A DNA stretch of 13,378 nt from UHGV virus genome UHGV-1734134; one strand, given 5' to 3'. The position numbers were made by a program, and so were the translations under genes. Positions 2,763 to 13,378 of the stretch are shown here, piece by piece (the stretch's first letter is position 1; each line of letters begins with the position of its first letter). The notes under the pieces are model-generated. The model was not told the DNA's origin. It worked only from the letters and a program-made list of their open reading frames with translations, and made no database searches. The DNA is from a virus.

Positions 2763-3651
2763 CGTGTTCACCCTCACGAACTTTCAGGTAGGTATTATCG
2801 TTAAGCAGGAAATCAAATCCCTTTTTGTGCCAGACGGTTCCGCGTTGATGGTTTGGGCGCTCTTCGAACATCCATCGGCAATTTTCGCCAACGTAGCTCA
2901 AATAATTTCTCCAGTCCTGCATCGTGAACCCATGCCCGTCAAGCTGGCGGGTTATCACTCCGGCTTTGCGCCAGAACGTTCGGATCTGGTTTTTACGCTT
3001 GTCATTCAGTGCGCGGATTCTTGGAGCTTCAGGAAGGATTTCGTGGTAAGCATCGACAACATCCTGACAGCTGACGGAAGGTTTTTTCTTGTCAGACTTT
3101 TTGTCTGCTGCGGTACTCTCTAATACGTCAGTATTAGAGATAATATTATTATATTCTTTATCTGTGGTAATTTGCTGGTAATCTGCTGGTACAGTATTGC
3201 TTGCAGGCATTGGTATTGCTGGCTTTGAGGTGGTAATTTGCTGGTAATCTGCTGGTACAAAATTTGACTGATAATCGTCATATTTCTCTACCGAGAAAAC
3301 TGAGAATTTACCGTGTGAAACCCAGTCAATCATGCCGAGTTTTTTGAACTTTCTAAGCAGGTACTGAACGCGATCTGGTTTGAGTCCTGTTTCAAACGCC
3401 AGAGAGTTTCTACCGCCAAGTAGCTTCCCTCTGCCTACCAGAATTTCTCCTGCGTCAGTCATTACATACTCAGGCGTATGCTTTGCTTTGAGGATTAAGT
3501 GAACCCACAGATGCGCAGCTTCTGCGTCCTTGTAAAACGGCACATCCATAATTTTACGGTGCAGCAAGGCATACCCCTTACCGCTGCTTTGATGCGGTTG
3601 TTGTAGCCTTCTGGCCTCTCTGGCTTCGGCTAGATTAGATATGTTACTCAT
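2752..3651 (-). CDS. Replication initiator protein, lambda O-like (replisome organiser)
   Basis: 299-aa ORF with AAGGAG upstream of the ATG. Sits immediately upstream of the helicase, as O/gene 18 does in lambdoid phages. Its central linker is encoded by the iteron repeats (tandem peptide [10 protein letters not shown]). Confidence 0.8.
3121..3259. repeat. Putative phage origin of replication: AT-rich block plus iterons inside the O-like gene
   Basis: Perfect 30-bp direct repeat GTGGTAATTTGCTGGTAATCTGCTGGTACA at 3164-3193 and 3230-3259, each built from TGGTAAT(N)TGC sub-repeats. Adjacent AT-rich stretch 3121-3160 (taatacgtcagtattagagataatattattatattc). Same architecture as ori-lambda inside O. 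Confidence 0.65.
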
Positions 3652-3824: not shown

Positions 3825-4103
3825 TTAGGCCTCGAAGAATTCGCCGTTCTTCGGGGCTTTTTCTTTTGTCAGCATTCTGGCTACTTTCTTAGCCAGTTCC
3901 GCCAACTCCTCGTCTTCAACACCCCATTCAAGAACAGCCAGAAGCATTCCCATTTTTGGGATGAAGCTGTCTTTCCATCGCGAAATTTGCGATTCATTAA
4001 TCCCTAACGCGTCGGCAACATTTCGCTGGCCACGTACAGCAATTCGATTCAGGATGTTGCTTGTAATTGCATTCGCTTTCTTGCGAGTACTTGTAAGTTG
4101 CAT
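3825..4103 (-). CDS. cII: CII transcriptional activator
   Basis: From the internal ATG at 4103 the protein is 92 aa. It aligns closely with lambda CII as I recall it (e.g. [20 protein letters not shown]). The track's upstream start at 4163 would run into the nutR/tR1 region. Confidence 0.9.
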
Positions 4104-6514: not shown

Positions 6515-6571
6515 CAGGTAACTTAAGCGTATTTACTTTCGCAGCAAACCACTTATTTGAGAGGAATTAAT

Positions 6572-7195
6572 ATGTCATCAATCCGCTTAACTACGAGAAT
6601 GAAAGAGGAAATCGCTCGTAACGCTTTAATTAAGTCTGGGGTCTTCACTGAACTTGAAGAAGTAACAAAGTTAAAGAACCAGCTTGCACTTGACGCCAGA
6701 GTTATTGCGTTTGGCGGTAAAAAGAAAACTGAGGAAGTGGATCAGTTATCATCCAAGTTGGTAGCTATAAGTGAAGAACTTGAAAAGATGGGATGTTCAT
6801 TTTACTCATACGATGTTAGTTCTACTTCAATTTATCTGACTGTATCTGGCAGAAGGGTTGGATGGCATTCATATGGGAAAGACGGCAACGGCGAAGATAT
6901 ATTGCTCCCTACTCCGACCAAAGATAAATGCATGTTTAGCGCAGAACACGAAATAACAAAAAGGTTTGATGAAATCTGCGCATTGCAACAAAAACTTGAA
7001 GCCAAGAAAAAGGATATCGAATCAAATGTATGGGCTGCTTTGAACTCAGTCACAACAGTTAAGCGACTTATTGAAGTTTGGCCTGAAAGCAAAGAATTGC
7101 TACCAAAAGAAGCAGATAAAGCAAGTACAGCACTTCCTGCTTTACGGGTAGAAGATTTGAATAAGATGATTGGACTTCCTTCCGAGGCCGCATAG
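6572..7195 (+). CDS. Hypothetical protein (207 aa), AT-rich moron-like gene in the PL operon
   Basis: ATG at 6572 with GAGAGGAA upstream. No TM segment or signal peptide and no motif I recognise. Visibly lower GC than the flanking N and cIII/kil genes. Followed immediately by a terminator. Confidence 0.75.
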   Translation: MSSIRLTTRMKEEIARNALIKSGVFTELEEVTKLKNQLALDARVIAFGGKKKTEEVDQLSSKLVAISEELEKMGCSFYSYDVSSTSIYLTVSGRRVGWHSYGKDGNGEDILLPTPTKDKCMFSAEHEITKRFDEICALQQKLEAKKKDIESNVWAALNSVTTVKRLIEVWPESKELLPKEADKASTALPALRVEDLNKMIGLPSEAA

Positions 7196-8653: not shown

Positions 8654-9121
8654 ATGTCTCACTTGGACGGAATTATTAAAAGATTCGAGTCCAGCTACAA
8701 AGTTAATGAAACAACAGGTTGCTGGGAGTCTACCTATTCAAAAAACAAAGGAGGATACACAAAATTTGTAGCCTTTGGCGTAACAATGCTTTCTCATCGG
8801 GTTGCTTTTGAGCTTTATCACTCCCCCATTCCATCTGGGAAGATGGTTTGCCACAAATGCGATAACCCATGCTGCGTTAATCCTGAACATCTCTTTTTAG
8901 GTAGCGCGCAAGAAAACATGGACGACAAGATAGCAAAAGGAAGGCATCGTGGAGCCAAAAAAGGTCATGCTCATCATGGTGCAAAATTAACAGAGTGGCA
9001 GGTTATAGAAATTAGGAAAAGACTCTCTGAAAAAGAGAGTCAGTACAAGATAGCAAAAGACATGGGTGTATCTCAATCAATTATAAGCAACATAAAAATT
9101 GGCAAGAGGTGGAGCAAATGA
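8654..9121 (+). CDS. HNH homing-type endonuclease
   Basis: 155 aa. HNH motif [15 protein letters not shown]..., with a C-terminal basic helix-rich region ([13 protein letters not shown]) typical of the DNA-binding tail of HNH homing endonucleases. Lower GC. Wedged between the annealase and SSB with abutting start and stop codons. Confidence 0.8.
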
Positions 9122-11185: not shown

Positions 11186-11395
11186 ATGGCTATTGCCGCA
11201 AGTTACACCATGCATCTCTATTGTGACTGCCGCCAGTGTACGGAAGGTGTATATCCAGTGCCAGACTTCGGTGAGTATATCGGTACGTCATGGTCTGGTT
11301 GTGCAAAAGAGGCGCGCAAGGATGGCTGGCGAATAAGCAAAGACAAAACGCGTGCTTTTGCGCCCGGGCATAAAGTTTTGAGGATTAACAAATGA
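11186..11395 (+). CDS. Small Cys-rich protein (69 aa), possible zinc-binding
   Basis: ATG at 11186 with AAGGAG upstream. CDCRQC...C cysteine cluster. The track's longer out-of-register ORF from 10850 is unlikely. Confidence 0.55.
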   Translation: MAIAASYTMHLYCDCRQCTEGVYPVPDFGEYIGTSWSGCAKEARKDGWRISKDKTRAFAPGHKVLRINK

Positions 11396-12681
11396 CCACT
11401 ATTACCAGAGAACAAGCTCTGAAAATTATTGAGGCAGCCGATGAGGTTATTAGTGCGCTTGCCGGAACTAACGAGGATGTTCACCCTGGTAGCGATAACA
11501 TGCTACGCCTGTGGGATGACCTGAATGACCGTTACGCGCCGCCGGAAGTTGTGCGTGAGCTGGCACGGATTGCACTGGCCTCGCTTGAGGCAGAGCCAGT
11601 TGGTGCATTCCACATTGCTGAACAGCAAGTTGACGGCACAAGTGACTATCTCAAGGATGGAGAATGGCCTATTGATAATGGGATTATTGAAGCCTACGCC
11701 GCTCCGCCAGTACCGGTAGTACCTGCTGCATTACCTGAGAACGACGATGAGGACGGGCATGACATTGATTATCTTGAGCCATCTGAAGTTTACGCGCTTG
11801 GGCGAACAGCTGGCTGGAACGCCTGCCGCGCCGCCATGCTTCAGTCCGGAAACTTTCGGGAAAATAAGAATTCGTCAACCAATAATTTTCGGGAAATCGC
11901 GGAAACGTCAACCAACTATCCGGTAATTCCTAGTGAGGTGTTGTCCGCAATCCTGAAGGTTGCCAAGATTCGTGCCGATTTCGATGATTTTGACGGCGAC
12001 AGACGAGGTATCGGTGATTGTCTGGATGAGGCTGAGCAAGAGCTTATCGTTACCATTAACAAATATGCCAGTCAGTTGGCAGCAGAACCGATAGCGACTA
12101 ATGACGTTCGAGAGCAGCAGACAGCCGTTCCGCCAGTTCCGGAAATACAGGCTGATGTCGGGCAGTCAATTGAAAAACTCAAACGGAAATTAGTGGAATG
12201 CAATCGCTATAACTACTGCGCAGATGCAGTTAAGGGCGTTGAGTATGCCTGCCACGCTGCCATGCTTCAGGGTAGCCAACCTGTAAGCCAAACTTACAAG
12301 TTTCCAGTTAATACACCTTGCCAGGATGCGCCAGCCCATATCTGGCTGCAAACAGCTGGAGTATGGCCAGAAGATGGCGAGTTAAGCGAATTAACGTGGT
12401 GCAGCCACAATCAGCACCATGATGACACGCTATATGTTCGAGCTGACTTGGTAAATGGCAATTCTCCGGTAACTCCGGATGGTTGGATAAGCTGTAGTGA
12501 TCGAATGCCGGAAGACACCAAAATGTTACTGGCATTTAGTCAAGGTGAAATCGTGGCAGCATATTGGAACTGGGTTGTAAATCCAATTGATTACAAAAAA
12601 TATAGAGCTTTCACGTATTTATCAGGAAATATCTTGGATGACGTAACTCACTGGATGCCGCTACCAGAGCCTCCACTTTGA
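11392..12681 (+). CDS. DUF551 domain-containing phage protein (429 aa)
   Basis: The C-terminus WISCSDRMPEDTKMLLAF...VTHWMPLPEPP matches the DUF551 signature as I recall it. ATGA overlap with the upstream gene. Contains an internal repeated motif (see findings). Confidence 0.8.
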   Translation: MTTITREQALKIIEAADEVISALAGTNEDVHPGSDNMLRLWDDLNDRYAPPEVVRELARIALASLEAEPVGAFHIAEQQVDGTSDYLKDGEWPIDNGIIEAYAAPPVPVVPAALPENDDEDGHDIDYLEPSEVYALGRTAGWNACRAAMLQSGNFRENKNSSTNNFREIAETSTNYPVIPSEVLSAILKVAKIRADFDDFDGDRRGIGDCLDEAEQELIVTINKYASQLAAEPIATNDVREQQTAVPPVPEIQADVGQSIEKLKRKLVECNRYNYCADAVKGVEYACHAAMLQGSQPVSQTYKFPVNTPCQDAPAHIWLQTAGVWPEDGELSELTWCSHNQHHDDTLYVRADLVNGNSPVTPDGWISCSDRMPEDTKMLLAFSQGEIVAAYWNWVVNPIDYKKYRAFTYLSGNILDDVTHWMPLPEPPL

Positions 12682-12777
12682 AAGCGAAGCTTATACATAT
12701 CTTTTACATCAGCAATCTATTGTTAATCTCCAATCAATGTTACGTTGTCATCTCACTCATGCTTTGGAGGTAGTGAT

Positions 12778-12957
12778 ATGTCTTGTCCAAAATGCGGTTC
12801 TGGAAATATTGCAAAAGAAAAAACAATGCGTGGATGGTCTGATGATTATGTGTGCTGCGATTGCGGATACAACGACTCTAAAGACGCATTTGGAGAGCGT
12901 GGTAAAAACGAGTTTGTTAAAATTAATAAAGAACGCGAAGGTAACGAAAAAAGCTAA
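12778..12957 (+). CDS. Small zinc-ribbon protein (59 aa)
   Basis: ATG at 12778 with GGAGGT upstream. CPKCGSG...CCDCG double CxxC pair. Low GC. Confidence 0.5.
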   Translation: MSCPKCGSGNIAKEKTMRGWSDDYVCCDCGYNDSKDAFGERGKNEFVKINKEREGNEKS

Positions 12958-13020
12958 TTTATTTATTCATATATGAAAACAATGTAACCAATATTCGAAT
13001 TGAAGAACTGAAAGAACACC

Positions 13021-13043
13021 AAGCCGCCTGATGGCGGTTTTTT
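13021..13043 (+). terminator. Rho-independent terminator closing the PL-side operon
   Basis: Stem CCGCC/GGCGG (extendable with one mismatch) with loop TGAT, followed by TTTTTT. Confidence 0.6.
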
Positions 13044-13053
13044 ATTACCTGAT

Positions 13054-13069
13054 TTGCAGGTTCGATTCC
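13054..13069 (+). other. 16-nt fragment matching the T-arm region of tRNA-Arg (argW-type); not an intact tRNA
   Basis: TTGCAGGTTCGATTCC matches the T-stem/loop segment of E. coli tRNA-Arg(CCU) as I recall it (...AATTGCAGGTTCGATTCCTGCAGGGGACACCA). The match breaks after 16 nt. Confidence 0.4.
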
Positions 13070-13088
13070 CTATTCGGAGATAGCACTC

Positions 13089-13289
13089 ATGCAACACGAA
13101 CTACAGCCTGATTCCCTGGTTGATTTGAAATTCATCATGGCCGATACTGGCTTCGGTAAAACCTTCATCTATGACCGGATTAAGTCCGGAGACCTGCCTA
13201 AAGCCAAAGTTATCCACGGGCGAGCAAGATGGTTATATCGTGACCATTGTGAATTCAAAAATAAGCTCTTAAGCCGCGCCAATGGGTAA
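13089..13289 (+). CDS. torI: TorI-like excisionase / recombination directionality factor
   Basis: 66 aa with GGAG upstream. MQHELQPDSLVDLKFIMADTGFGKTFIYDRIKSGDLPKAKVIHGRARWLYRDHCEF... matches my recollection of E. coli TorI, the excisionase of the KplE1/CPS-53 prophage. Lies next to the att core. Confidence 0.75.
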   Translation: MQHELQPDSLVDLKFIMADTGFGKTFIYDRIKSGDLPKAKVIHGRARWLYRDHCEFKNKLLSRANG

Positions 13290-13362
13290 AATAGCGGGTA
13301 AAATATTTCTCACATCTAAAAAACATCATTCCAATCAATCCCCTGCCGCTTCAAGTAGATGT

Positions 13363-13378
13363 CTGCAGGGGACACCAT
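13363..13378 (+). other. Prophage att core (attR-type) identical to the 3' end of tRNA-Arg
   Basis: CTGCAGGGGACACCAT. The first 15 nt equal the 3' acceptor end and CCA of tRNA-Arg(CCU), and I recall this 16-mer as the KplE1 att core. A 7-bp inverted repeat CCCCTGC/GCAGGGG (13340-13346 and 13365-13371) flanks it. The window ends here. Confidence 0.6.

Follow-up and report, generated by a model that had tools for sequence, protein, structure and literature searches.

A tRNA-Arg T-arm sequence upstream of torI in a prophage attachment module

Layout and identity of the attachment end

The stretch of DNA analysed herein (the window; 13,378 nt) terminates exactly on a 16 nt attachment core, as the earlier note on this sequence had supposed. 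From left to right, the terminal region carries an intrinsic terminator, a sequence matching the T-arm of a tRNA-Arg gene (the T-arm box), the torI gene, two arm-type repeats and the core itself (Table 1). The TorI-like excisionase gene of the earlier note is torI, the product of which agrees with K-12 TorI at every residue. On this attR side the gene reads towards the core, and its stop codon lies 73 bp ahead of it. The terminator that follows eag insulates torI against early-left transcription from upstream.

Table 1. Coordinates of features at the right end of the window
Feature	Position	Strand	Detail
Intrinsic terminator, 8 bp stem and T-run	13021-13045	+	Terminator scan; 3′ of eag
T-arm box, TTGCAGGTTCGATTCC	13054-13069	+	16/16 copy of E. 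coli K-12 argW nt 46-61
Candidate degenerate second pentamer, ATTCG (13072-13076), weak	13072-13079	+	12 bp after the GTTCG start at 13060; overlaps the Shine-Dalgarno sequence
Shine-Dalgarno sequence of torI, GGAG	13076-13079	+	
torI (hkaC / Sf6 gene 18), 66 aa, recombination directionality factor	13089-13289	+	Protein 66/66 identical to K-12 TorI
Direct repeats, two copies of GGGTAAAATA	13284-13293 and 13296-13305	+	Repeat search; HK620 annotation 'attP repeat'
Inverted repeat of 8 bp, TCCCCTGC / GCAGGGGA	13339-13346 / 13365-13372	+	Right arm inside the core
attP/attR arm directly left of the crossover, GTAGATGTC	13354-13362	+	Degenerate T-loop copy; consensus of relatives TTCGATGTA
att core of 16 nt, CTGCAGGGGACACCAT	13363-13378	+	argW nt 61-75 plus the following T; attR crossover region; window stops here

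The core represents the displaced 3′ end of argW, in agreement with the earlier reading of these residues as a tRNA acceptor end; it is annotated in K-12 as the pseudo-tRNA 'pawZ', and matches the published 16 nt core of KplE1 (PMC2951348). The two direct repeats very probably represent arm-type sites for IntS within the P arm, and the arm-type motif GGGTAAAA that occurs between torI and the core is also present in the P′ arm of attL. The only other arm-like motif nearby, GGTAAAA within torI (13155-13161), was considered as a third such site and rejected, as its synonymous positions vary freely in relatives. A 7 bp inverted repeat had been reported to flank the core; the repeat exists, but it is 8 bp in length and its right arm falls within the core rather than beyond it. 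In many relatives the arrangement CCCCTGC...TGCAGGGG is retained across this region. A small ORF annotated in HK620 and Sf6 (hkaB / gene 17) corresponds to positions 13282-13378 (+), beginning in the region of the torI stop codon and crossing the attP core; it is severed at the core upon integration, and is therefore probably not a real gene.

Positions 12700-13378 are 98.5% identical to the coliphage HK620 and positions 12984-13378 are 98.5% identical to the Shigella phage Sf6 (both Lederbergvirus), with each alignment spanning the annotated attP core. The order of features is likewise the same, comprising eag (in HK620 only), terminator, box, hkaC or gene 18, and core. In the two phage genomes, however, the P′ arm and int come after the core, whereas the window stops at the core, as an integrated copy should. 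Homology to the KplE1 element (CPS-53) of K-12 begins in the T-run of the terminator (about 13039-13045), as seen upon alignment with K-12, HK620 and Sf6, and continues at near identity to position 13378, such that both share the T-arm box, an identical TorI, the GGGTAAAATA repeats, the 8 bp inverted repeat and the 16 nt core. Upstream of this boundary the two diverge, with yfdT/ypdJ in K-12 as opposed to eag and the terminator in the window. Moreover, KplE1 is a 10 kb remnant, whilst the window forms part of an apparently intact lambdoid early region.

Those marks of the KplE1/HK620/Sf6 argW module that can be assessed within the window, namely the core, a TorI-type recombination directionality factor (RDF) and the arm-type repeats, were all found. 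It is thus virtually certain that positions 13021-13378 constitute the right attachment end (attR) of a lambdoid, P22-like prophage, and there is equally little doubt that this prophage carries the KplE1/HK620/Sf6 recombination module and is inserted in argW, the tRNA-Arg(CCU) gene. No integrase domain was detected in the ten largest ORFs scanned, which bears out the earlier remark that the window lacks an integrase. By analogy with the published layout, in which the RDF gene sits at attR and IntS beside argW at attL, IntS and the regenerated argW would belong at the far end of the prophage, beyond the window. This layout, which the earlier note had proposed, can be observed in its complete form in a related 39 kb P22-like prophage of E. 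coli XYEH3934 (L120), which is bounded by two copies of the core in the order dsdC / core, torI ... tailspike, gtr genes, intS, core, intact argW. In K-12, strain 55989 and XYEH3934, the host genes found beyond the core are dsdC or the csc genes.

The attachment arrangement is therefore known biology, with identical sequence in E. coli K-12, and the argW module has been published with regard to its 16 nt core, the role of TorI as RDF and its conservation in HK620, Sf6 and CUS-3 (PMC2951348, PMC3509656). In this respect the window adds nothing new, and is one more mosaic prophage with the KplE1/HK620 module. The only part that appears to be undescribed is the T-arm box before torI, of which no description was found in PMC2951348, PMC3509656, GenBank annotations or a full-text sequence search, with mention elsewhere being possible.

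The T-arm box and its conservation across torI loci

Alignment to K-12 argW upholds the earlier identification of the box as tRNA-Arg T-arm sequence, and shows that it runs from the end of the variable region through the 5′ strand of the T-stem and the T-loop to the second base of the 3′ strand. A chance match is excluded by the expected number of exact copies in the window, which is about 6e-6 for a given 16-mer and about 4e-4 for any 16-mer of argW. A second copy of the box was not found in the window, even when up to 3 mismatches were allowed. Box and core share residue C61 and between them cover the terminal 30 nt of the tRNA (argW nt 46-75), so that the two pieces are contiguous in the tRNA but separated here by 293 bp containing torI, much as the earlier note had it (about 290 bp). 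As a half-site, the box equals the portion of attB directly 5′ of the crossover, with 13-16 nt identical to argW up to the overlap region. It also holds the TorI recognition pentamer GTTCG (13060-13064). The window contains no tRNA gene that is detectable by ARAGORN, and the pieces form neither a foldable cloverleaf nor a contiguous tRNA segment, being 293 bp apart and with the box lacking both the 3′ strand of the T-stem and the acceptor strand; only the core, and not the box, corresponds to pawZ. A further sequence, CCTGATTCCCTGGTT (13107-13121, torI codons 7-11), forms an 80% direct repeat of CCTGATTTGCAGGTT (13048-13062), the latter overlapping the box; the two have GATTCCCT in common, and the repeat is probably due to chance.

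The upstream fragment had been interpreted as part of a tRNA 3′ end that torI separates from the remainder, as the remnant of an older att site, or as a second crossover point, and none of these readings is supported. Directly left of the crossover, the exact hexamer TTCGAT is present in 14 of 30 distinct variants, with the others being 1-2 mismatches away. In these 14 the attP arm reads TTCGAT-GT(A/T/C), never TCC; the consensus of relatives is TTCGAT-GTA followed by TGCAGGGG, and in E. coli the arm reads GTAGAT-GTC. This T-loop copy departs from the tRNA at just the three bases adjoining the overlap. As the attP arm beside the core thus carries its own T-loop, the T-loop is duplicated and not split, and insertion of torI into a longer tRNA block is rejected as a simple story, given that a T-loop lies on both sides of the gene. 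Conservation of the box across genera far exceeds what is expected of a decaying scar, which speaks against an older att remnant. As for a second crossover point, the bases after the box are CTATTCG, as opposed to TGCAGGG in the core; the box is without the overlap region, and strand exchange with the core is therefore impossible. Furthermore, excision proceeds in vitro with a 135 bp attR, the outer primer of which sits in the last torI codons (PMC3509656); this working attR excludes the box, and the upstream copy consequently lies outside functional attR. The upstream 16-mer is therefore a genuine copy of the argW T-arm, but a second and separate one.

The conservation of the box was assessed using torI homologues of 60-98% protein identity, together with their flanks, from species-representative genomes, assemblies and IMG/VR, which yielded 65 distinct upstream variants. 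The form (C)AGGTTCGATT(C/T)C occurs in 45 of these, drawn from about nine named genera, including E. coli, Enterobacter, Citrobacter, Serratia, Pantoea (represented by two species), Edwardsiella and Hafnia, as well as from metagenomic and viral contigs. The part conserved between genera is CAGGTTCGATTCC (13057-13069), within which TTCGATT (13061-13067) is invariant. In the box-carrying variants TTCGATT starts at a fixed -28/-27 from the torI ATG, with the few values of -19 in the position table reflecting a wrongly picked start codon. The DNA upstream of the box is unrelated among box-carrying lineages, and the box thus marks the left edge of the torI module.

An alignment of 12 sequences quantifies this pattern, with the reservation that its identity figures are inflated by ascertainment, the 12 having been picked for carrying the box: TTCGATT has an identity of 1.00, and mean pairwise identity is 0.90 for the box, 0.85 for codon positions 1 and 2, 0.67 for third codon positions, 0.55 for the stretch between box and ATG, and 0.33 for the DNA preceding the box. 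That bias does not touch the constant position of the box or its recurrence in different lineages. Tandem copies of the box are present in four variants, being 16 bp apart in L139 and L142, and 13 bp apart in L136 and L009. Some lineages with a single box have a second pentamer (GTTCG, GTCCG, GTACG or ATTCG) located 12-13 bp downstream, just 5′ of GGAG; the weak ATTCG of the window would occupy this same position, at which several relatives display GTTCG, GTCCG or GTACG.

The box is not universal, and is absent in about ten lineages, amongst them Klebsiella, Cronobacter, Dryocola, Tatumella, Rahnella, Mixta, Proteus and Arsenophonus. In Klebsiella, torI overlaps the preceding gene, and the only relative locus that contains a tRNA-Arg gene, that of Proteus (L021), is likewise one without the box. 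A few E. coli-type loci have point mutations in the box. Such absence or mutation in some lineages indicates that the box is dispensable, and therefore useful rather than essential. Variation within species is too low to reveal constraint, with singleton mutations falling inside and outside the box alike. On the strength of these comparisons, the upstream copy is very probably a conserved, separate cis element that bounds the torI module on its left.

Possible roles of the T-arm box

The explanation favoured herein has three parts, namely an attR end, a separate conserved box, and a role for this box as an operator for TorI and/or IntS; taken whole, it has about an even chance of being right. 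With regard to the last part, the element is short, fixed in position, conserved in sequence and sometimes tandem, and on these grounds can be read as a protein-binding site. That it is an operator for TorI and/or IntS, controlling torI, is a tentative proposal, and each step of the mechanism is one that we infer. The DNA-binding proteins of the module itself would control torI expression through the box. The first candidate binder is TorI, which might thereby exert negative autoregulation on its own gene, whilst the second is IntS, the core-binding part of which might occupy the box. Put more specifically, and with marginally less assurance again, the box could be an operator that mimics a tRNA, used either by TorI on its own gene or by IntS recognising a decoy of the chromosomal half-site. 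Likeness to the tRNA would then be kept since the specificity of the binder is pinned to a T-loop that cannot change.

Small winged-helix RDFs of the AlpA family, such as Vis of P4, are known as autoregulating repressors, which provides a precedent for the first candidate. In favour of TorI, GTTCG occurs within the box, and this protein is known to bind tandem direct repeats. On attL, TorI has five sites, consisting of GTTCG, GATCG or GTCCG in direct repeats, which mediate repression of the intS promoter (PMC2951348). Relatives, Proteus among them, retain arrays of the GTTCG type in their P′ arms. The likeness between these sites (I1-I5, the operator of the intS promoter in KplE1) and the box extends to the pentamer and to a position by the start of a recombination gene, and their direct-repeat organisation is resembled by the boxes of some relatives. 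Against TorI, the base after GTTCG is C or T, and never A, in the profile of known sites, yet is A in the box; the spacing between boxes or pentamers is 12-16 bp rather than the 10 or 20 bp of known arrays; E. coli has a single good copy; and the invariant TTCGATT.C fits the T-loop better than it does a loose TorI site profile.

In favour of IntS, the box exactly matches the attB half-site, which this integrase must recognise, and which is unable to drift because it is the T-loop of a tRNA. Binding by IntS would therefore explain why exactly TTCGATT.C is frozen. Against this candidate, lone core-type half-sites are usually weak binders of integrase. Mutation of the core in attL, moreover, left IntS binding unchanged (PMC2951348). 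The free variation of the arm-like GGTAAAA within torI at its synonymous positions likewise counts against IntS. It had also been suggested that regulatory sequences overlap the att site; such overlap is documented for attL and the intS promoter, but not for the attR side (PMC2951348).

As TorI is already known to repress intS, an operator at the box would complete a feedback loop in a module that is found in many enterobacterial prophages. The authors of the KplE1 work place the main control of excision at the RDF gene (PMC2951348), and the box is a candidate for the missing control point of that gene, in a setting where HK620, Sf6 and KplE1 are all genetically tractable. The box would in addition provide a small example of a tRNA-derived sequence that is kept, and even duplicated, in a phage for reasons other than strand exchange.

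The main rival is that the box is a relic without present function: what remains, as a passenger of torI, either of an older att site or of a longer tRNA-derived block in an ancestral attP. This is rather unlikely, but has several points to commend it. In E. coli the box abuts the core exactly in tRNA coordinates, and the match to the tRNA extends differently between lineages, by TTG on the left in E. coli, and by TG on the right in Serratia (L011 and L201) and Pantoea (L014), as would be expected if a longer ancestral copy of the T-arm had eroded. Its dispensability in about ten lineages, with the Dryocola locus (L013) resembling a clean deletion, and for excision in vitro (PMC3509656), is similarly what a relic would display. 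Against it stand the invariance of TTCGATT and the identity of the box, which exceeds that of both flanks and of synonymous sites, subject to the ascertainment noted above, as well as the fixed distance to the ATG and tandem duplication that has apparently occurred more than once, at spacings of 13 and 16 bp. The T-loop also occurs in duplicate, and a split block would hence not by itself account for the box. An origin in a tRNA copy would nonetheless be compatible with a function at present.

Less probable still is that the box forms part of a cII-activated promoter of the P_I type. This is how the HK620 GenBank record annotates the stretch: in window coordinates, its 'promoter, phage integration' spans 13044-13082 and its cII site 13045-13057. 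Transcription towards int would, on this annotation, begin no earlier than the ribosome-binding site of torI. Lambda, in which P_I lies inside xis, offers a parallel for a start near the torI ATG, and a precedent for a regulatory element immediately before or inside an excisionase gene. HK620 and Sf6, both of which are annotated in this way, have TTGC-N5-TTGC at the proposed site, and a CII of the lambda type is encoded in the window. The canonical cII site is, however, TTGC-N6-TTGC straddling the -35 region, and none is present within one mismatch upstream of torI. Furthermore, where HK620 and Sf6 have TTGC in the first tetrad, the window and K-12 have TTAC (13046-13049 in the window), giving TTAC-N5-TTGC. 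The tetrads are not kept in Hafnia, Edwardsiella, Serratia and Pantoea, whereas the T-loop box is, and a sigma-70 scan found no promoter, with the would-be -10 (GAGATA) being poor. The only perfect CII site in the window is the P_RE-like TTGCTTGTAATTGC at 4057-4070 (+), within the 5′ part of cII and pointing to cI.

Finally, it is most improbable that the box is an RNA element of the torI 5′ leader, either a T-arm-like hairpin recognised by tRNA-processing or tRNA-modifying enzymes or an anti-Shine-Dalgarno segment masking the ribosome-binding site: Edwardsiella and P. stewartii do have a perfect hairpin at the box (ACAGG-TTCGATTC-CCTGT), and the GGAG of the ribosome-binding site is a possible pairing partner for UUCC in the box, but the 3′ strand of the T-stem is lost in most lineages, E. 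coli included, and the prediction of RNAalifold for 12 diverged leaders, a consensus of only -1.15 kcal/mol with no compensatory pair, largely refutes such a structure. A search of 12900-13378 against Rfam at E<=10 returned only sub-threshold matches, none below E=0.4. The best of these was to the Salmonella sRNA candidate STnc130 (13012-13139, -; 22.6 bits against a cut-off of 55, E=0.43), a similarity on the complementary strand to torI that takes in both terminator and box.

Related loci and the remainder of the window

Several of the related loci display features of their own. In L139 (1460-1500) the tandem consists of two perfect copies of CAGGTTCGATTCCC, 16 bp apart, and that of L009 is located at 2170-2200. 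The attR core of some relatives is truncated to CTGCAGGGGACAatcc or TGCAGGGGGCAata, without the CCA end (L007 at 3290-3310, L017 and L217), which suggests either decay of the displaced tRNA end or integration at secondary sites. In a Hafnia locus (L104, 10001-13438), a second integrase and a P4-cII-like gene come directly after torI and the core, and a second element appears to lie in tandem at the same core. The Proteus hauseri locus (L021, 2992-4567) has a tRNA-Arg(CCT) gene without an encoded CCA, followed by an int that is convergent with, and overlaps, torI; here the T-arm box is lacking, and the GTTCG arrays are kept in the P′ arm.

Beyond the attR region, the window begins in a nin/replication region and constitutes a lambdoid early region, encoding a DnaB-type helicase, CII, CI, a Rad52-type recombinase and Eag. 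Compared with complete E. coli genomes, its best match covers 64% of its length, as befits a mosaic prophage. The early-left operon harbours a gene of the nucleotide-modification-associated Nmad5 type (6557-7192, +). An HNH endonuclease gene (8654-9118, +) lies directly 3′ of the gene for the Rad52-type recombinase. An ORF of 429 aa (11392-12678, +) matches only DUF551 at its C-terminus, with its N-terminal 360 residues corresponding to no Pfam family.
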